Source of the DNA: Octopus vulgaris
Taxonomy: Eukaryota
NCBI GenBank assembly: GCA_951406725.2
Contig: OX597821.1
Location: 72,354,001-72,418,000, forward strand
Reading direction: 5' to 3'
Length of the DNA stretch: 64,000 nt
In this document: positions 33,056 to 61,420 of the stretch, piece by piece
Layout: each line of letters starts with the position of its first letter
How positions within the stretch are numbered: the stretch's first letter is position 1
Notes under the pieces: model-generated
What the model saw: the letters and a program-made list of their open reading frames with translations, nothing else
Database searches by the model: none
What the model was told of the DNA's origin: nothing
Translations under genes and position numbers: made by a program

Positions 33056-34612
33056 GTAATTAATGCAATCTTTTTTTTTTTTTTTTGTTCAGAATACTCC
33101 AAGAATCCTTACAAACTCCTTCCTGTCAGCTGAATAAAACTAGCAGAGCTTGGCAAATGAAATAAAATTTTAAAAAAACACAGCTCCGTCTTTCCAATCC
33201 ATCATCATCCTAACAATCATTGGGGGTGGGGTGGGGGAGAGCATGAAGATAATGATGATGATGATGGTGATCATCATCATAATTTCCATCTTCTTCAAAT
33301 CTGTTTGTCCATTTGTTACTTAGGACTATTCAACAATTGTCATCATGGTACCATTCTCACATCTGACTTTGCCATCTTCAAACATTTTTTGGTTTGTTTG
33401 TTTTGCTTCTCTGTTAGATCCTCATCCACCAAAGGGCTCATGGCACTTTTCCCCCAACACAGATTTCATTTCATTCATCTCCTCCTCCTATTGTGCACAT
33501 TGACAAACATGACTGATGCCCAACAAGTTTTACTTTTCAATCCACCTTTCTTCAGTCATCGTTTAATGTCCACTTTCCATGCTGGCATGGTTTGGACGGT
33601 TTGACTGAGGACTGGCAAACCAGGAGGCTGCACCAGGCTCCAATTTGATCTGACAAGGTTTCTACAGCTGGATTCCTTTCCTAACGCCAACCACTCTGAG
33701 AGTGTTGTGGGTGCTTTTTATGTGCCACCAGCATGGGAGCCAGTCAGGCGGCACTGGTATTGACCATGCTCAAATGGTGCTTTTTGTGTACCACCCAGGT
33801 GGCACTGGCATTGTCCACACTTGAATGGTGCTTTTTACATGCCACAAGCACAGGTGCCAGTCAGCATTAGCCACAAATTGTTGTAACAGGAAAGATTTGT
33901 CAGCTATTAGAATTCCAGCTCAAAAGTTTTGCAATTATTCCAGCTTCTTAACAAACACATACTTCTATGCACCTGGAGTTCACCTTGTTGCCAATAATAT
34001 CAGATCTGGGAATGTTACTTGTGATTGACCAATGTCCTTTCCGTGAGATAATTTTTCTCATCCTCTTAACACCATGACAAGGAAGCTAGGTTCTGATCCT
34101 TAAAATTTCTTTGATTTAAAAGACATTTCAAAAACACCATTTTCGAGCATGGCTGTTGCCAGTACTGCCAGACTGGCCCTCATGCCGGTGGCACTTTAAA
34201 AGCACCCATTACACTCTCAGGGTGGTTGGCGTTAGGAGGGGCATCCAGCTGTAGAAACTCTGCCAGATCAAGATTGGAGCCTGGTGCAGCCATCTGGTTT
34301 GCCAGTCTTCAGTCAAATCATCCAACCCATGCTAGCATGGAAAGCGGACGTTAAACGATGATTTCACATTTTTCAGGTGAAAATTGTTGTTTTCACCTAA
34401 AATTGATATCACAAAGATATTGAATTCCTTAGATTCTATTTATTGTATTTTTCTCTCTTTCAAATATTTTTATCACATTATTTTATACATTAATAAATAA
34501 ACTTTTATTTTATTGAAGTAAAAATATAAAAAATTATTTTATTTAATGATTTTGTAATTTTTGTTTCTCAGTCATTGTTAAGGTTGTTTTTTGTTTTTTT
34601 ATTCTTTCACAG

Positions 34613-35689
34613 AGATGAAAATATATCAAAAGCCGAGGCAAATCAACGAAATGAGATTCTCAATTCTCAAAAGTTCTCAATAAGTACTCATCCACATTTA
34701 CCAATTATTATTTGTAGTGACGGCTTTCTTGTGACTGTTCTTGAACTGCCTTACAATTTGGACTGTTTGTCTCTGGTTCAGAACCTCGTCTCTTGGTCCT
34801 CTCAGAAGCTTTCTTTACTAAGTAAAGAATACAAACTTGATTTTACCCATTCCGAACAGAGCTCTGCTGATGGAATTTTTGTCAAGGAAAACATTAGCAG
34901 CCTTACTTTATTGCAACCTCCCAGATCCTATCACTTTGAAGAGGGAACACATTCAGAAGATAGTGACCAAAGCATTCTTCAAGAGGATCATCTTAATAAT
35001 CTAGATGCTGGAGTCATTACATTTGGTGTTCCTTTAACCAACAACTGCAAATCACAGCCAAAAACTTCTAAAACCCACTCAGAAATTTTGAAAAATATTT
35101 ATCTCAGTTTGCTCTTAGCTTGGAAACTTGAGGTGACATCAGGTTGTACCTGGGATCCAACAAGAGCAAAAATTACCAAAGCGACTTTAGTGAATACCTC
35201 CAAGGTATTCCAGCTTTTTCTTGAGGTGTCATCATTAACCAAGTCTTTAAAGAATGAAATGTCAGATAAATCCTCTCTTTTTCATTTGATTCGAATGTTT
35301 CGGGAATTTCTGCATCTTCTTCATTTTGATTTCTTATATCAACGACATCTCAATGTCATCATTTGTTTTGTTCATAAAATTGTTAAACTTATACTTAATA
35401 ACAAGAACCTTTCCAAATCTGATCCTGCTATTAAAACACTTCTGGGATGTGAAGCTTTACTCAACTTTACTAACCGAATTCTTAGCAAGACTTACACCTG
35501 GTCTTCAAAATATCCACCATCAAAAGCCAGGGGAAGGGAAGATCCTTTTCTGGAAATAAACACAGAATCAGAAGATAATAGTTGGTATGAACCTTCAAGA
35601 AATAGCTCAAAGACTTCGAATTCAAGAAAGAAAGTTCCTAAAAAGAAACCCAATGTTGAGCAAACAATCCAAAATAGTTCTTTACAAGA
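34613..35689 (+). CDS. CPLANE1: CPLANE1-like coding exon 8 (1077 nt)
   Basis: QKFSISTHPHLPIIICSDGFLVTVLEL (compare QRFSIKAHSRLPYLVISDGYMVTTL). GA|GTAAGT. Phase 2 to 2. Confidence 0.92.
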
Positions 35690-36135
35690 GTAAGTTCTTT
35701 GATTCGTTTGTTCTTTTACTTGTTTCAGTCATCTGACTGCTGGCCATGCTGGAGCACTGCCTTTTGTCAAACAAATCGATCCCAGCACTTATACTTTGTA
35801 AGCCTAGTACTTATTCTAGCGGTCTCTTTTGCCAAACCGGTAAATTACGGGGACGTAAACACACCAACATCGGTTGTCAAGTGATGGTACAGGGAGAAAC
35901 ACGGACACACACGTGCAAATATATATATATAAATAAGAAAATGGAGAAACAAATTTAGTTTGTTCATCAACTTTCGGATATTAGAATATTTACCTTCACC
36001 CATTTAATACAATAAATGAGTTAATTGCATTGCAATTAAAAACATTTATGTATTAAGAATCTGGGTACTCTACCAACAGTATATTGGATAAATACTATCC
36101 CATAGTGGGTTACACCCATAACCCCTGTCTTACTT

Positions 36136-49954: not shown

Positions 49955-50134
49955 AATGATTCAGCAATAAAGTCTGCTGCTTTAATCCAAGAGAAGGAAC
50001 TGAGACACAAGACTTCAGTTTTGATACGTCTTATATTGATTGTTCTTCAAGGAGCCAAATTGTCTCTGCCATTGGCACAATGGTATATTCAGCAACTGAT
50101 GACAGTCTCCAAGAGATCTGCAAATAAATTTGGA
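49955..50134 (+). CDS. CPLANE1: CPLANE1-like coding exon 16
   Basis: NDSAIKSAALIQEKELRHKTSVLIRLILIVLQGAKLSLPLAQWYIQQL... Phase 0 to 0. Confidence 0.87.
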
Positions 50135-50661
50135 GTAAGTTTAGTTACCTGTCATTTAACCCTATAAATTATTTTTATGTTTCTTAATTACTTTGACATG
50201 AGAACGCTTCAGGTAATGACACTGAAAATTGTACCAATTTCGATGAAAATTTTGGAAAAATTTTTGGGAAAATTTTCGGGAAAATTATCGGCGAAAATTT
50301 TCTAAACATTTTTGTTTAAAATTTTCGAAAAATTTTTGTGGAAAATTTTCGGTGAAATTTTGGGGAAAAGTTTTGGGGAAAATTTTCGGCGAAAATTTTC
50401 CAAAAATTTTTGGGGAAAGTTTTCCATGAAAATTTTCTAAAAGTTTTTGGTGAAAATATTTGGTGAAAATTTTCGAAAAATTTTTGGGAAAAATTTTTCG
50501 AAAATTTTACCCAAAAAATCTTTCGAAAGTTTTCACCGAAAATTTTCCCCAAAAATTTTTCGAAAATTTTCCCAAAATTTTTCGAAAATTTTCACCGAAA
50601 ATTTTACTTTAAAAAGTTTCCGAAAATTTTACCCAAAAATTTGTCGAAAATTTTACCGAAA

Positions 50662-50854
50662 TAAAAATAGATGTTATGGCTAAAAATAGATTTTTATGTA
50701 GCTCTTGCTGCTGCTTTCTGTGTATAGAGTGAATTCTGGTTTAATATTACAGTCAAGATGCCTCACCATCCCCGATACACCAGATTCTGCTTTACACTTA
50801 ACAACTATGACGATATAGACTTCAGCATATGGAGCATATTCGTTATATGGGTTT
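50662..50854 (+). other. Endogenous CRESS-DNA-virus-like ori plus truncated rep, copy 1
   Basis: TAATATTAC at 50742-50750. ATG at 50758. MPHHPRYTRFCFTLNNYDD contains RCR motif I. Confidence 0.75.
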
Positions 50855-51774
50855 TCGAAAATTTTCCCGAAAATTTTACCCAAAAATTTTTCCAAAATTT
50901 TCACCGAAAATTTTCCCAAAAATTTTTTGAAAATTTTTGCCGAAACTTCTCTCCAAAAATTTTTCGAAAATTTTCACCAAAAATTTTTGCCGAAAATTTT
51001 CCCCAAAGATTTTTCGAAAATTTTCACAGAAATTTTACCTAAAAATTTTACGAAAATTTTCCCCAAAAACTTTTCGAAGAGTTCCACTGAAAATTGTACC
51101 AAAAATTTTTCGAAAATTTTCCCTAAAGATTTTTCGAAAATTTTAACCAAAAATTTTACGAAAATTTTCCCCAAAAATTTTTCGAAAATTTTCCCCAGAA
51201 ATTTTTGGAATAGTTTCACTGAAAATTTTACCAAATAATTTTCCGAAAATTTTCCCCAAAAGTTTTCTCCAAAAACTTTTCGAAAATTTTCACGGAAAAT
51301 TTTCCAGTTTTCACCGAAAATTTTAGCGAAAATTTTTCGAAAATTTTACCCAAAAATCTTTCGAAAGTTTTCACCGAAAATTTTACCCAAAAATTTTTCC
51401 AAAATTTTCACCAAAATTTTCCCAAAAATTTTTCGAAAATTTTCACTAAATATTTTCACCAAAAACTTTTAGAAAATTTTCATGGAAAACTTTCCCCAAA
51501 AATTTTTGGAAACTTTTCACCGAAAATTTTCCCCAAAAATTTCACCGAAAATTTTCAAAACTTTTCACCGAAAATCTTCCGCAAAAATTTTTCGAAAATT
51601 TTAAACAAAAATTTTTAGAAAATTTTCGACGATACTTTTCCCCGAAAATTTTCCCAAAATTTTCATCGAAAATTTTCCACAAAAATTTTTCAAAAATTAT
51701 CACTGGAAATTTTTCCAAAATTTTCACCGAAAATTTTACCTAAAAATTTTAGCGGTGCCAAAATCACAAATTAT

Positions 51775-52126
51775 GGCCTTCCATACTTTGTGATTTTGGC
51801 ACTGCTGGCCTTCCATACTTTTTGATTTTGGCACCACTGGCCTTCCATACTTTTTAATTTTGGCACTGCTGGCCTTCCATACTTTTTGATTTTGGCACCG
51901 CTGGCTTTCCATACTTTTTGATTTTGGCACCACTGGCCTTCTATACTTTTTGATTTTGGCACAGCTTGCCTTCCATACTTTTTAATTTTGGCACTGCTGG
52001 CCTTCCATACTTTTTGATTTTGGCACCGCTGGCTTTCCATACTTTTTGATTTTGGCACCGCTGGCCTTCTATACTTTTTGATTTTGGCACAGCTAGCCTT
52101 CCATACTTTGTGATTTTGGCACCGCT
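51775..52126. repeat. 32-bp tandem array, 11 copies, with an inverted leader unit
   Basis: Unit GGCCTTCCATACTTTTTGATTTTGGCACCGCT. 51751-51770 is the exact reverse complement of 52107-52126. Confidence 0.95.
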
Positions 52127-52374
52127 GGCCTTGTGATTTTTCGAATATTTTTACCCAAAATTTTTCCAAAATTTTCACCGAAAATTCTACCCAAAAATTT
52201 TTCGAAAATTTACCGAAAATTTTCCCCAAAGATTTTTCGAAAATTTTCACCGAAATTTTACCCAAAACTTTTACGAAAATTTTCCACAAAAACTTTTCGA
52301 AGAGTTCCACTGAAAATTGTACCAAAAAATTTTTCGAAAATTTTACCCAAAAATTTGTCGAAAATTTTACCCGA

Positions 52375-52580
52375 GCTAAAAATAGATGTTATGGCTAAAA
52401 ATAGATTTTTATGTAGCTCTTGCTGCTGCTTTCTGTGTATAGAGTGAATTCTGGTTTAATATTACAGTCAAGATGCCTCACCATCCCCGATACACCAGAT
52501 TCTGCTTTACACTTAACAACTTATGACGATATCGACTTTTATAGACTTCAGCATATGGAGCATATTCGTTATATGGGTTT
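52375..52580 (+). other. Endogenous CRESS-DNA-virus-like ori plus truncated rep, copy 2
   Basis: TAATATTAC at 52457-52465. ATG at 52473. RFCFTLNN, a 1-bp insertion, then YDDIDFYRLQHMEHIRYMGF. Confidence 0.75.
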
Positions 52581-53462
52581 TCGAAAATTTTCCCCAAAAA
52601 TTTTTCCAAAATTTTCACCAAAAATTTTTCCAAAATTTTCACCAAAAATTTTCCCAAAAATTTTTTGAAAATTTTTGCCGAAAATTCTCCCCAAAAATTT
52701 TTCGAAAATTTACCGAAAATTTTCACCAAAAATTTTTCGAAAATTTAACGAATATTTTCACCGAAAATTTTACCCAAAACTTTTTGCCGTTAATTTTCTC
52801 CAAAGATTTTTCGAAAATTTTCACCGAAATTTTACCCAAAACTTTTTGCTGTTAATTTTCCCCCAAAACTTTTCGAAGAGTTCCACTGAAAATTCTCCCC
52901 AAAAATTTTTCGGAAATTTACCGAATATTTTCACCGAAAATTTTACTCAAAAATTTTTGACGAAAATTTCCCCAAAGACTTTTCGAAAATTTTCACCAAA
53001 ATTTTACCCAAAAAGTATCAGTGACAGAAGATTATTATTATTATCATCATCATCATCATTGTTTAACATCTGCTTTCCATGCTGGCATGGGTTGGACGGT
53101 TTGACTGAGGACTGGCAAGCCAGGAGGCTGCACCAGGCTCCAATCTGATCTGGTAAGGTTTCTACAGCTTGATGCCCTTCCTAATGCCAACCACTCAGAG
53201 AGTGTAATGGGTGCTTTTTACGTGCCACTAGCACAGGAGCCATTCAGGTGGCACTGGCAACAACCATGCTCAAACAGTGCCTTTTGAGTGCCATCGGCAC
53301 AGGAGCCAGTCAATCTTGTGTTAACATGTTACTTTGAGATTTTGATGATGTGATTGTCTTAGAATGACTTTTAATTATAAAAAAAAAACGTATCCATTGT
53401 AGAAAGTGCTGGAAATTTTTTAACCATATTCTCTCTATTTTTTCCATTTTCATTTTATATAG

Positions 53463-53678
53463 AAAGAATTTGATGGTCCAATTATGGAATTTCCAGATAT
53501 ACTTTTGCATCTGGGAAGTGTGAAATCTAATCTTCAATCATTTACAACTAATACCAAATTTTTACCAATATTCTCTTCGTTTCGGAACTTTTGTGGACTC
53601 ACCTGGTTCCTACATGTCCGTGACCAGCTGTCATTGCATAACAGATTGCGAAGATCTTACATAGAAAGGCAGCGCATT
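53463..53678 (+). CDS. CPLANE1: CPLANE1-like coding exon 17
   Basis: FRNFCGLTWFLHVRDQLS (compare FRELCALCWMLHVRDKLS). Phase 0 to 0. Confidence 0.92.
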
Positions 53679-56316: not shown

Positions 56317-56635
56317 TTAAGCATCCCTGTCCTTCAACACCATTTTATGTCCACTTTTCCATTCCGGCATCGGTCAACTGGTTTCACTGGGTCTGTCTTC
56401 TAGGATGCCTGTGTTCTTGGATGCCCTTTTGTGTTGCCAACCCTTTTAGTTGCCTCTTACAACTTGCAGGAACAGAATCTACCTTCTCTAAAACTAGAAT
56501 ACACTTGCTAATCTCTCTTTAAACATATTAAAATTACTTTTTTCCCTAATTTATTTTTTAGAAATAAAAAAAACTCTGTTTTGTTTGCTAAGCATTAAAT
56601 ATAATTTTCTGTATTCATTTTATTTACTTTTTAAG

Positions 56636-58251
56636 AAACCATCTACATTAAAAGATGAAGAATGGTGTGCTTTGTGTGAAGTTTGTCTTACCTGGAATGT
56701 TCATTTCATCCCATTCAGCCATTATTTAGCTGATGAAGAATGGTCTTACAAAGTTCTTCTCTCAGTTTTATCAGAATTGGAACCTTCAGTTTATACAGCT
56801 CAAATCCTGGCAACTTTCTGTCACGATGTGGAACAGCTTGATTCTGAAGTTCAAGAAAAACTGGAAATTTTGTTGAAACGATGGCAAACATTTCCAGTTA
56901 TCAAGGTCCAAAGTATTAAGCAAAAAAGTGGCATTATCAGAAGAAGTTCTTCATCTGAGAAGTCTTTGTCAGTATACTTCCAAGAATATTGCAGTTCTGT
57001 GGAGAAGACAATGGATAAAAAAAAGAACTACTTTGGAAATTACTGTGAGTTTATGTTTGATTCCAAAACCGCCACAGAACATAGTATTAATGTTGGTTCT
57101 TTCCCATTTGAAACATGTGAATCATATGGTAAATTCTTGGATATGTTTTATGACATTTCCTTTTCAAAACTTCTGGAAGAAGAGAGATCACAATCAAAGT
57201 CATTCTCCCCATTGCTTGATGTATTCACGGAAGAAATTGTTGCCATGCAAATGGAATCCATGCCATTTCGAACAATGACAGGTCGACATCCTAAACAGAG
57301 TCTGCTTATTTTATCAAAGCCATGCAAAGAAGCGACCAATTTCCAAGATTCCAGTAATATATTGGATCCAAGTTTTGGTTCAGTTAATCAACAAACTCCT
57401 AAAAAAACCAAAGGTCTTTTTAATCGGAGTCATTCAGCCGATGCCTCATGTCACTACTCTGCTACAAGTCCTGTTAGTCAAATGACTGCAGTTGAGAAAA
57501 GACAGTTGTGGAGCCAAGCTAAAAGGAGGCAGGACAGATGTAGAGAAACGACGATGCCACGGAGTAACAGATCAAAATCTTTGGATAGTATTTCAGACAA
57601 ACAAAATATTCTGTGGTCATTTGATATTGATTTTGGTTCTCAGTATTTGAAACTGAACCAGTTGGTTGATTGGCTGATTATGTGGGCTAAAAAGAACCAT
57701 ATTCTCATTTCTCAACTTGAAGAGGAACAAAAAGATGGAGATTCTGCCATGCATGCCATTGTCCAGCCTCAGTTGTTGGTTCTTGCTTTGTGGCTTTTGG
57801 AACAGAAGTATTATCCTTTAACTAATACAACTACAGATAACCATTCAGTCCAGTTTCCTTCCAGTCTAAAAGAAACCTCCAAGAAACTGACTTCTCAGAG
57901 TTCCAGAAGTCACTTAGAAAAGAAGAAAAGAAAGAAAAAGAGTGATTCTTCATCTCTGTCAAAAGACAAAGAACCTTCGCTTCCTCCAGCTCTTTCATTT
58001 GACAAAGAAGAATTTAGAAAATGGTTGAGAAGTTCAGAGAATGGAATTGAAGCCAGAAATGAACAGGAAACTCAGTCTTTGACATCAAATAAAATTGGCA
58101 GCAAAACTAAGAAAAAAAAGAAAAAACAAAAACAGAAAGTGGTATGGAATCCTTTGGAAACGATGAAACCTCTCAAATTTAAAAACCTGGAAGAGGAAGA
58201 ACAAGAAGAACGTGAAGAAGTGAATCAAGCGTACGAATACGTTCTCCACAC
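56636..58251 (+). CDS. CPLANE1: CPLANE1-like coding exon 18 (1616 nt)
   Basis: 556-codon ORF including PFSHYLADEEWSYKVLLSVLSEL, YGKFLDMFYDISF and LNQLVDWLIMWA. AC|GTGAGT. Phase 0 to 2. Confidence 0.9.
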
Positions 58252-58904
58252 GTGAGTAAATTGGTTGTTGTTGTTGTTGTTAATTAGTCTTTGATTGGCT
58301 CTGATCAAAGATGGCCATCCTGTTGTGTTTTAGACATAATTGTGTATGTAGAACTAATTATCCAACATGTTTGCTTATCCTTTTAAAACAGCTGGTTGTG
58401 AGTCCTTCCTCCTGATTAAGCTAGAGAGAGAGAGAGAGATATTTGGCTGCTATTTTTTGCAGGTTAAGTGACCATGTGAAGATTCCCTTACTGACTTAAT
58501 TAGTAATTTTGTGTTTGCAGCTGTGATTACCAAACATCATCATCATCATTGTCATTTAATGTCCATGTTCCAAGCTGGCATGGGTTGGATGGTTTAACTG
58601 ACTTTACTGGGCTCAAACACGGTCTTGTACTCCAGGGTTTCTATGGCTGGATGCCCTTACTAATGGCAGTCACTTTACAGTATGTGCTGAATGCTTTTTT
58701 TCATGCCACTGACACTAGTAAGGTCGCCATGCAGCTTGCAAGGTTGTGAAACCCAAGGGAGCAGCTTGTTAGGAGAAGAGGAGTTTAAAGTATGGGAAGA
58801 TCTGTTTACTGCAAAACACTTTAGATGCTAGTAACTAGTCCAAACATTACAATTAGCCCTGGTGAATTGAAAACTTAATCAAGTTGTAATAAATTTAGTA
58901 GTGT

Positions 58905-61420
58905 TTACAAATTTCCTGTGAATGGACAGAGATTTAGAGACGTGTTACTTGAAGCTTTTGATGAAAAAAAGGAGGACATAGCATCACATAATGTGGAAAA
59001 AAACTGGAGGTTCCTATGGGACAACCTGTTGAGGGCTTCTGACCAGATTTGGGGATGGTGCAAAGTCCCATCTTGGTCTAAAGTAACGTGGTGGTGGAAC
59101 AATGTAGTTGACAGGGCCATTAGAGAAAAGAAACAAGTATGGAAGGACTGGAAGAACAGTGGTAGCAGGGAACTGTGTCAGATTGCCAGAAGAGAAGCTA
59201 GGAGAGACAGGTTTACTTAGCAAGAGGGGAGGCAGATAAGAAAATATTTGCCAGTGTTCTGCATCGCGAGGACCAAAGACTTGAGGTGTTTTGTGTTGCA
59301 AGACAGTGTGTGACAGAGAATCAAGATGTCATAGGAGAGAAATGTGTCTGCATGGATGACGGCTCACTTGCATTAAATGAGGCTGCAAGGAGAAAGACCT
59401 GGAGACGCCACTATGAAAGGTTGCTAAAGGAAGAGAATGAATGGGAGAAAGAGAGCCTGCCAAATATCGACCCAACAAAGGGACCAGCTATCCAAACTGA
59501 CAGTACTTTGGTAGATAAAGCAATTAAAGGTATAAAGACAAGGAAAGCCCCTGGCCCATCAGGAATCACTGCAGAGATGCTTAAAATATCTGGCAGTGTC
59601 GGCTATAGTCTAGTTACCTGTATAGTCAATCAGGTGATACATGAATCAGTCACACCCAATGACTGGTGTAGCAGCACCATAGTCAACTGCTACAAAGGTA
59701 AAGGTGACGCCCTAGATACAAATAATTTCAGAGGTGTCAAATTGTTAGATCAGGTGATAAAAGTCATAAAGAGGGTCATAGCCCAACTAATTAGGGAGAG
59801 AGTTAGTTTAGACAAGATGCAATTTGGGTTTGTGCCAGGGAGAAGCACCACTGACGTCAATATTTCTGGTAAGATAGCTGCAAGAGAAATACCTAACCAA
59901 AGATAAACCCCTGTACTTGGCTTTTGTTGACATGGAGAAAGCTTTTGACAGGGTCCCCTGATCCCTTATCTTGTGGTCAATCTAGAAACTAGGGATATAT
60001 GAGTGGTTAGTGAGAGCTGTACAAGTCAGGTACAGGGATGCTGTCAGTAAAGTGAGGCTCAGCAACGAGTATAGTGAAGATTTCAGGGTACAAGTAGAAG
60101 TTCACCAAGGATCGGTGCTCAAGCCCCTCTTATTCATCATAGTCTTCCAGGCAATAACAGAGGAATTCAAGATGAGATGCCCCTGGTATCTCCGATATGT
60201 TGATGACCTTGCTCTAATAGCTGAACCACTATCAGAATTAGAAAAGAAATTTAGGGTGTGGAAGCAAGGTCTAGAATTGAAGGGCCTTAGAGTCAGTCTA
60301 GCAAAAACCAAAGTCTTAATAAGTCGGAAGGCAGACAAACCACAAATCCCTTCAGGTGGATAGCCTAGCTCGATCTGTAGAAAAGGTGTAGGTAGAAACT
60401 CCATAAGATGTACCTAATGTAAGCTATGGACACATAAGAGATGCAGCAATATCAAAGAATGGCTAACTGGGAAGATAATGTTTGTGTGTGGCAGATGCAC
60501 AAGGGCAATAAACACTGAAAATATGCAGAAAACAGCTTCCATCACATTCCAGGAAGAAAAACTAGAAGTAGTTGATAGTTTCCATTATCTAGTCATAACT
60601 ATTAGAGTAAGAATAGCCTGGGTTCAAAGAGCTGCTACCTCTGCTGGTAACAAAGGGGCTCTTGCTCAAACTGAAAGGTAGACTGTATGATGCATGTGTA
60701 CGAACAGCCCTGCTACACTGTAGTGAAACATGGGCCGTGACTGCCCATGGTGTAAGCTTGCAAGAAATGAAGGTAGTATACTCCGCTGGATGTGTAATGT
60801 TAGTGTGCATATACAACAAATTGTAAGCACCTTGGACATAAGAAGCATCAGATGTGGTGTTCAAGAGAGATGACTGCACTGGTATGATCATGTGTTGCAT
60901 ATGGATGAGGACAGCTGTGTGAAAAAGTGTCACACCCTAGCAGTAGAGGGAACTTGTGGAAGAGGTAGACCCAGGAAGACCTGGAATGAGGTGGTGAAGC
61001 ACGACCTTCAAACGTTGGGCCTCACAGAGGCAATGACAAGTGACTGAGACCTTTAGAGATATGCTGTGCTTGAGAAGACTCAGCAAGCCAAATGAGACCG
61101 TAACCGTGACCTATGCCAGTGTCGCATAATCAGCCCCTTTAAGAGTGTCCTTCAATCATTGGGCAATATACTGTACTTGAGAAGACCTGTTGAGTCAAGT
61201 GAAATCATTGTTGTGGCTGATGCCAGCGACGTTTGACTGGTACATAAAAAGCACCATTTGAGCATAGCAATGTCAGTCCCAGCAGACTGGCATCCGTGCC
61301 AATGGCACATAAAATGCACCGTACGAATGTGGTCGGTGCCTGTGCCGTCTGACTGGTCCCATGCTAGTGGCACATAAAAAGCACCATTCAAGCATGGTCG
61401 TTGCCAGTGCCACCTCACTG
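58905..61420 (+). mobile_element. RTE-clade LINE, 5'-truncated ~2.5-kb copy (RT domain, Cys-rich insert, partial 3' UTR)
   Basis: KAPGPSGITAEML, QFGFVPGRSTTD, DMEKAFDRV, VHQGSVLKPLLF and YVDDLAL, with multiple stops and frameshifts. Confidence 0.93.

Follow-up and report, generated by a model that had tools for sequence, protein, structure and literature searches.

How two short sequences resembling the start of a viral replication gene came to lie within an intron of an octopus gene, and whether they include a replication origin, is the question raised by this locus. The window, that is, the whole stretch of 64,000 nucleotides that was analysed (G000:C8:72354001-72418000), belongs to the genome in which all genomic searches were conducted (G000, 2.8 Gb). 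The product of one related locus is 98% identical to a predicted protein that its source assigns to Octopus vulgaris, which marks the host as an octopus. Sequence comparison within the window revealed two cassettes of ~200 bp on the plus strand, copy 1 at 50662-50856 and copy 2 at 52377-52583, with a spacing of 1715 bp. Each contains TAATATTAC at the same site (50742-50750 and 52457-52465), followed 7 nt downstream by an ATG (50758 and 52473), and each carries its own lesion, 10 bp being deleted from copy 1 and 1 bp inserted into copy 2. These coordinates and lesions, described in an earlier note on this DNA, were reproduced. Apart from the lesions, only 2 positions close to the 5' edge distinguish the copies, and they share a common end point, beyond which AAAATTTT satellite begins. 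The sequence RFCFTLNN is in frame in both. The note interpreted the cassettes as a CRESS-virus replication origin joined to the N-terminus of a Rep protein; the analysis described here leads to the conclusion that they are real, viral and non-coding and have been amplified as satellite DNA, while the origin claim is unsupported.

The cassettes are part of a mosaic satellite block of ~2.8 kb inserted in the intron (50223-53018; the left junction is set by an empty allele and the right edge is approximate). The block opens with a palindromic AAAATTTT/TTTTCGAAAA satellite that has periods of 12-13, 24 and 37 and an internal inversion (50223-50661). This is followed by cassette copy 1, AAAATTTT satellite (50857-51773), a 32-bp minisatellite (51774-52132; 11.2 copies, 90% matches), further AAAATTTT satellite (52133-52376), cassette copy 2 and a final AAAATTTT tract that extends to the right edge of the block (52584-53018). 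Thus, the cassette is not the only complex sequence in the block, as had been claimed, since the minisatellite also resides there and accompanies the cassette in many other blocks. Copy 1 comprises an AT-rich duplicated 13-mer, a degenerate (GCT)n tract, a shortened TATA-like tract, a likely 5'-UTR and the start of Rep. On either side of the block are open, phase-0 host exons with GT-AG borders, also on the plus strand, of 180 nt (49955-50134, upstream) and 216 nt (53463-53678, downstream). These exons, attributed to CPLANE1 and numbered 16 and 17 in the note, had no match in Pfam, Atlas (two exons) or PDB. A genome search with PF15392 had no match anywhere, its control included, and so provides no evidence against the name CPLANE1.

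The reading frames that follow the ATG in copy 1 (50758-50855) and copy 2 (52473-52581) both include motif I (FTLNN) of rolling-circle replication (RCR) proteins, and both are broken, by the deletion in copy 1 and by the insertion in copy 2, where a stop follows after 17 codons. A check against PF02407 (Viral_Rep), which the note had proposed, succeeded in part. This family was the sole Pfam match for three of five peptides, over profile positions 2-28, with E values of 0.004-0.07 that are below the curated cut-off, and the other two, among them the copy-1 frame of the window, had no Pfam match; the set included natural unbroken cassette copies from elsewhere in the genome. A PDB search with one natural 36-aa copy gave 0 matches. 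A profile of 123 Rep N-termini with the octopus EVEs left out, drawn from a viral set that leans toward this lineage because it was gathered with the octopus EVE Rep fragments L031 and L157 as queries and a motif I filter, gave 27-30 bits for three 36-aa copies and 21.9 and 15.4 bits for the 22-aa and 16-aa frames of the window. For each of these five frames (15-30 bits), 0 of 300 shuffles reached the score. Among 125 N-termini, the best match of the three 36-aa copies was L031 (137-142, versus 100-106 for the next, the free virus L045), and for the short frames of the window L045 tied with or slightly exceeded L031. The cassette and L031 share 62% amino acid and 69% nucleotide identity with a pN/pS of 0.33, the pattern expected if two viruses had diverged under selection and only then been integrated.

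Beyond motif I, the cassette has neither catalytic residues nor a helicase, and none of the 151 copies examined in the genome reaches motif II. Judged from these sequence comparisons, the frame is the N-terminus of a circovirus-like CRESS-virus HUH Rep, cut before motif II and endogenous in octopus. The proposal of the note that such a fragment was truncated and afterwards copied is thus borne out by the profile scores, the L031 match and one shared 3' end. The suggested geminivirus-like character did not hold, as the only Pfam match of L031 (E<=1) was PF02407 and its eight PDB matches were exclusively of circovirus and nanovirus type. The note also recommended a search for longer copies; none was found among the cassettes themselves, but relatives that retain HLQGY and YCQK (L031) or a helicase (L157 and L158) were recovered.

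Fossils of the same virus lineage are present elsewhere in the genome. A profile search found one full PF02407 match, L031 (G000:C14:64337847), which is a 104-aa intact HUH domain with the motifs FTLNN, HLQGY and YCQK (PF02407 E 5e-23). In the PDB it matched circovirus and nanovirus Rep structures with E values of 2e-14 to 2e-9, a circovirus Rep being closest (E 2e-14). We take 2hw0, 7kii and 5xor to be circovirus Rep HUH domains and 2hwt and 6h8o to be those of nanovirus Rep; all five were matched by L031, whereas the cassette keeps motif I only. L031 (780-2016 of its locus on C14, ~64.34 Mb) is preceded by a TATA tract and belongs to a 412-bp block standing in place of ~39 bp within a single copy of a tandemly repeated, multi-copy Merlin/IS1595-type transposase. 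A composite Merlin-Rep element was considered and rejected, because the Rep block is found in one Merlin only and in the other copies both sides are joined by the ~39 bp. The L031 insertion therefore replaced host DNA rather than duplicating it, a pattern also found in the intron of the window.

A second fossil, L157 (1236-3565; G000:C15, ~38.11 Mb), contains a little over one full ambisense unit of 2,144 bp, with an origin stem-loop at each end. Its Rep is broken in the HUH domain and leaves a 354-aa open frame with the helicase part, and its opposite-strand ORF has 24 R/K residues in the first 60 aa, so that the element has the ambisense ~2-kb layout of Rep, stem-loop origin and opposite ORF of circovirus-like genomes. 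An SF3 helicase is present in L157 and L158; PF00910 matched L158 over its cut-off (24.6 bits) and did not match L157. A full viral Rep used as query identified eight places in the genome and the opposite ORF six, two of which carry both. The lineage has left further Rep-helicase and capsid-like pieces at L158, L160-L164 and L178-L181 (on C11, C3, C1, C17, C15, C30, C31 twice, C12 and C6). A TAGAATTAC variant lies just before the capsid-like ORF of L180, which is a near-duplicate of L178, flanks included.

In a quick tree of 51 helicase regions, built without reference family members, L157, L158, P0011 and the octopus-labelled P0009 formed one group (SH-aLRT 97). P0011, which falls inside this octopus group, and P0006, which is 75% identical to L031 over 56 aa, are unnamed database proteins. 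The closest free relatives found were unclassified ~2.1-kb CRESS genomes from IMG/VR (L035-L114) and Logan/ENA Reps (P0011-P0017), with 33-50% identity to the L031 HUH domain and 40-55% to the aligned portion of the L157 Rep; the octopus helicases cluster separately. The opposite-strand ORF is a putative capsid only. It had no match in Pfam or in the PDB, a profile search of the latter included, and a representatives search returned eight unnamed clusters (one repetitive 18% match was left out of alignment A2). A profile of the octopus capsid-like proteins likewise had no match among 406 ORFs from 80 IMG/VR loci (best E 1.4), and AlphaFold predictions, with pLDDT values of 33 and 32, gave no usable fold.

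The cassettes of the window, interpreted in the note as a local two-copy duplication, proved to be two members of a satellite family found throughout the genome. When the cassette DNA was used as query, 195 candidates were obtained, of which 40 were scored and yielded 56 matches; an exact 23-mer of the cassette occurs 64 times, and the two approaches together placed copies on at least 11 contigs. In 41 stretches examined, at least 151 copies were counted, 60 of which carry the 23-mer; scaling from the 23-mer gives a total of ~160, and all of these counts are lower bounds. Every copy that has the 3' motif (132 of 132; another 19 copies are without it) runs straight into satellite at the same codon, which suggests that one truncation founded the family. 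Among 46 ungapped copies, mean identity was 91.5% (84-99%), five had stops and five were without the ATG. Their pN/pS was 0.84, with a codon bootstrap of 0.57-1.38 computed over pairs that are not independent, and by these substitution patterns the copies are drifting neutrally.

In all, 48 blocks of 0.28-14 kb were delineated in 30 regions. They are mosaics in which the cassette is combined with AAAATTTT satellite and the 32-bp minisatellite, and they contain inversions. The many degenerate head-to-tail copies, arranged in arrays, non-coding and neutral, are what is expected of a satellite unit, although the arrays are mosaic and irregular and lack a single fixed monomer. The family is also endogenous by the usual indications, as it lies in host chromosomes, is joined to host DNA and was seen in independent samples, being found in runs of three organism labels. 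Comparison of 94 flanks from the 30 regions revealed no matches across regions other than three MITE-bearing flanks and one simple-repeat/SINE-like pair. The MITE is ~390 bp in length with inverted arms of ~125 bp (L016:1120-1500; L015:1700-2090; L191) and has 1974 candidates in the genome; three loci, all on different contigs, share the same insertion of it in the cassette, and a 21-bp minisatellite lies close to each. The possibility that this inverted-repeat element, which lies upstream of three cassettes, is a viral terminal hairpin was rejected, as it is an independent high-copy MITE.

Does the nonamer mark an origin? The accepted test, as given in the accessible portion of PMC6186406, is the presence of NANTATTAC at the apex of a stem-loop. 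The note described a weak stem around TAATATTAC. This stem is 3 bp in length (-1.1 kcal/mol, z=+0.75), and 159 of 200 shuffled sequences fold as well. The two occurrences of TAATATTAC in the window, both derived from one site by copying, do not by themselves exceed chance, as 0.81 are expected and two were attained in 18 of 100 shuffles. Across the 151 copies this site reads TACTACTAC in 69, TAATATTAC in nine and TAGTATTAC in two. Stem and distance to the ATG were measurable in 62 of 80 related IMG/VR contigs, the other 18 having been dropped because of length, no start near motif I or no 6-bp stem. All 62 have stems of 8-18 bp, none closer than 20 nt to the Rep ATG, and TAATATTAC occurs in none of them. 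The cassette nonamer, at 7 nt, is closer to the ATG than is the origin of any of these viruses.

What an origin of this lineage looks like is apparent from the fossils. In L157, TAGTATTAC lies in a 9-bp stem (z=-4.51, reached by 0 of 200 shuffles), 80 nt before the Rep ATG. L179, on C12, also has TAGTATTAC, and its other strand bears a GC-rich GCT tract, a TATA tract and GACTACTAC, with an ATG 91 nt on that abuts the end of a Rep and is presumed to be the Rep start. The lineage's own origin is TAGTATTAC, with a stem of 9 bp and a distance of 80-91 nt to the ATG. Being a minority variant that has no stem and stands at the wrong distance, the cassette nonamer does not qualify as the replication origin proposed in the note. 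The order of these elements up to the ATG is common to the cassette and L179, and ACTACTA precedes the ATG in L031 as well. The GCT tracts of cassette and L179 agree at 18 of 21 nt, a low-complexity match for which 12 comparisons were made (p=0.005 and 0.021 for two copies, 0.46 for the degenerate copy of the window). The best reading, which leans on this weak match to the L179 EVE, is that the upstream part of the cassette represents a promoter and 5'-UTR from which the real origin has been lost. TAATATTAC would then be part of the 5'-UTR and is probably a chance variant of the TACTACTAC site rather than an origin.

The block is polymorphic, being present in this intron in some animals and absent in others. 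An empty allele was found in the public runs X1 (organism A), X8 (D) and X14 (E), in each of which a single contig follows the window to 50222 and then continues into the same other sequence, for 255, 255 and 111 nt, respectively. The block is present in X4 (B) and X5 (C), whose contigs run 22 and 45 nt into it, while the X3 (A) contig breaks at 50178 and is uninformative. None of the contigs spans the whole block. The start of the empty-allele sequence was found neither in the window nor in the genome G000; host DNA thus gave way to the block, and no duplicated target was left. TGACA, which occurs on both sides of the block, was considered as a 5-bp target duplication and rejected, since different sequence follows position 50222 in the empty allele. 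Replacement of this kind suggests repair-type copying. The absence of shared termini and the scrambled, inverted contents of the blocks fit template-switching repair into a break, or the reinsertion of satellite circles, as judged from established pathways.

Taken together, the cassette is likely a non-coding fossil of the first 36 Rep codons, with a probable promoter and 5'-UTR, that now serves as a unit of a dispersed satellite and probably spreads passively when pieces of satellite are copied into chromosome breaks. Its history may have begun with a single germ-line capture of a viral fragment beside a AAAATTTT repeat, at which the real origin would have been lost. Satellite turnover could then have amplified the fragment, and template-switching repair or the reinsertion of satellite circles could have dispersed it, while TAATATTAC may have arisen from TACTACTAC by a drift of two bases in the 5'-UTR. 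The proposed mode of spreading is deduced from the end structure at one empty site together with the missing shared termini; block edges are fuzzy, and short terminal motifs could be missed.

Other explanations place the cause of spreading elsewhere. In one, the cassette is a working non-autonomous rolling-circle replicon, the nonamer of which is nicked by a viral Rep acting in trans. This would account for the perfect NANTATTAC in the window copies, in five C14 copies among the first 69 examined (8/69 in all, from four stretches) and in a few others. Furthermore, the intact HUH domain and the many viral fossils imply that Rep was in the germ line, and HUH insertions usually occur without target duplication, according to the available part of PMC10288648, as in this intron. 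Replication from the nonamer is nevertheless improbable, given the missing stem, the scarcity of TAATATTAC and TAGTATTAC (9 and 2 of 151 copies) and the longer, more distant stems of the 62 related viruses. The nonamer does not coincide with block ends, and a search of the 110 nt further upstream found an origin-like nonamer in 0 of 151 copies; in contigs of four public runs, C occupies positions 50744 and 50747 in 77-100% of the summed depth. An extended form of this model, in which a CRESS Rep of infecting or endogenous octopus viruses nicks the cassette, or else the palindromic satellite, and propagates it by rolling-circle copying, the TAATATTAC subfamily in the intron having recently regained a nick site, is a long shot. 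Alternatively, cassette and satellite might be internal cargo of a host transposon that does the spreading, whether a Helitron/Helentron, a MITE or a Replitron-like element. The occurrence of one MITE at an identical position of the cassette at three loci, the intact HUH fragment inside a multi-copy Merlin and the likening of GRD3 of Nicotiana to Helitrons (PMC5014472, in the text accessible) all point in that direction. However, the MITE is an independent family, a single Merlin copy is occupied, and the insertion in the window removed host DNA. Neither shared defined termini nor a target-site duplication, by which Replitrons, Helitrons and MITEs are recognised, was found among the 94 flanks or at the intron junction, and apart from the MITE flanks and the simple-repeat/SINE-like pair no flank is common to regions. 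Transport as cargo is thus considered unlikely.

The possibility that selection retains the cassette because it yields an antiviral small RNA or a short peptide would be consistent with a 34-codon frame that is open without a stop in 41 of the 46 ungapped copies, with the retained TATA-like tract and with the siRNA produced from EGV repeats of yam (PMC5014472, as far as its accessible text extends). It is very improbable in view of a pN/pS among copies whose interval includes 1, the frameshifts in both window copies and the polymorphism of the block. Hardly any weight is given to an assembly artefact, a contaminant or a chance likeness to Rep. Although no contig spans the whole block and the 36-aa peptides do not reach the Pfam cut-off, copies are present on at least 11 large contigs and in runs of three organism labels, the X4 and X5 contigs pass from the intron into the block, and the profile and EVE matches are far beyond those of shuffles. 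Passive spreading of a viral fossil within satellite DNA is hence the preferred explanation.

From the accessible portion of PMC5014472, the closest known case is the GRD of Nicotiana, in which a truncated geminiviral rep and origin reside in repeats. There, GRD2, GRD3, GRD5 and GRD53 of Nicotiana and EGV1 of yam are described as truncated ssDNA-virus rep sequences that integrated and multiplied as repeats, and GRD copies, like those of the octopus cassette, are described as drifting neutrally (PMC5014472, same portion). The plant elements keep a v-ori-like sequence or a stem-loop and form direct repeats clustered at few loci (PMC5014472, same portion). In contrast, the octopus cassette retains ~200 bp and no stem-loop, alternates with two host satellites, is spread over at least 11 contigs, resides in an animal and is circovirus-like rather than geminiviral. 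In animals, Rep fragments of unclassified CRESS viruses have been found in molluscs (bivalves and gastropods), as here in octopus, with one to four elements each and no satellite amplification described in the accessible part of that source (PMC6069186). Octopus bimaculoides appears in its species sheet, and no octopus row was found in its element sheet, one supplementary file being outside the search (PMC6069186). Replitrons resemble the octopus sequences in having a CRESS-type HUH Rep in a eukaryotic genome, in multiple copies and often without target duplication; as presented in the sections seen, they have a full Y1 transposase with a second domain, no helicase and short terminal direct repeats (PMC10288648). 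The SF3 helicase, ambisense second ORF and nonamer stem-loop of the octopus lineage argue that it is viral and not a Replitron, and the cassette is without defined ends. No description of octopus CRESS fossils or of such a satellite was found in the literature, as covered by titles and the starts of abstracts, with most subscription papers outside this coverage.

These findings show a piece of an ssDNA virus gene turned into a building block of animal satellite DNA, present or absent among animals inside a host gene. About a dozen fossil pieces link to octopuses a set of unclassified CRESS viruses, whose capsid-like protein is unrecognised, and reveal the origin, genome layout and host of these viruses. 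Because the block is polymorphic and has a defined empty site, the spread of dispersed satellites becomes directly testable.

Several other features were observed along the way. Whole satellite blocks have been duplicated in tandem with their host flanks at L185-L189 (G000:C1:20.016-20.056 Mb), L152-L153 and L193-L194, a group that includes the largest satellite clusters seen. To the right of the block in the window, a short interspersed repeat of very high copy number occupies 53056-53320, with a summed contig depth in the millions. Open frames of 387 and 585 codons, stop to stop, at 34530-35690 and 56498-58252 on the plus strand had no family match and are probably large exons of the host gene. 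At 59202-59903 there is a 234-codon open frame, which we take to resemble part of a retrotransposon ORF.
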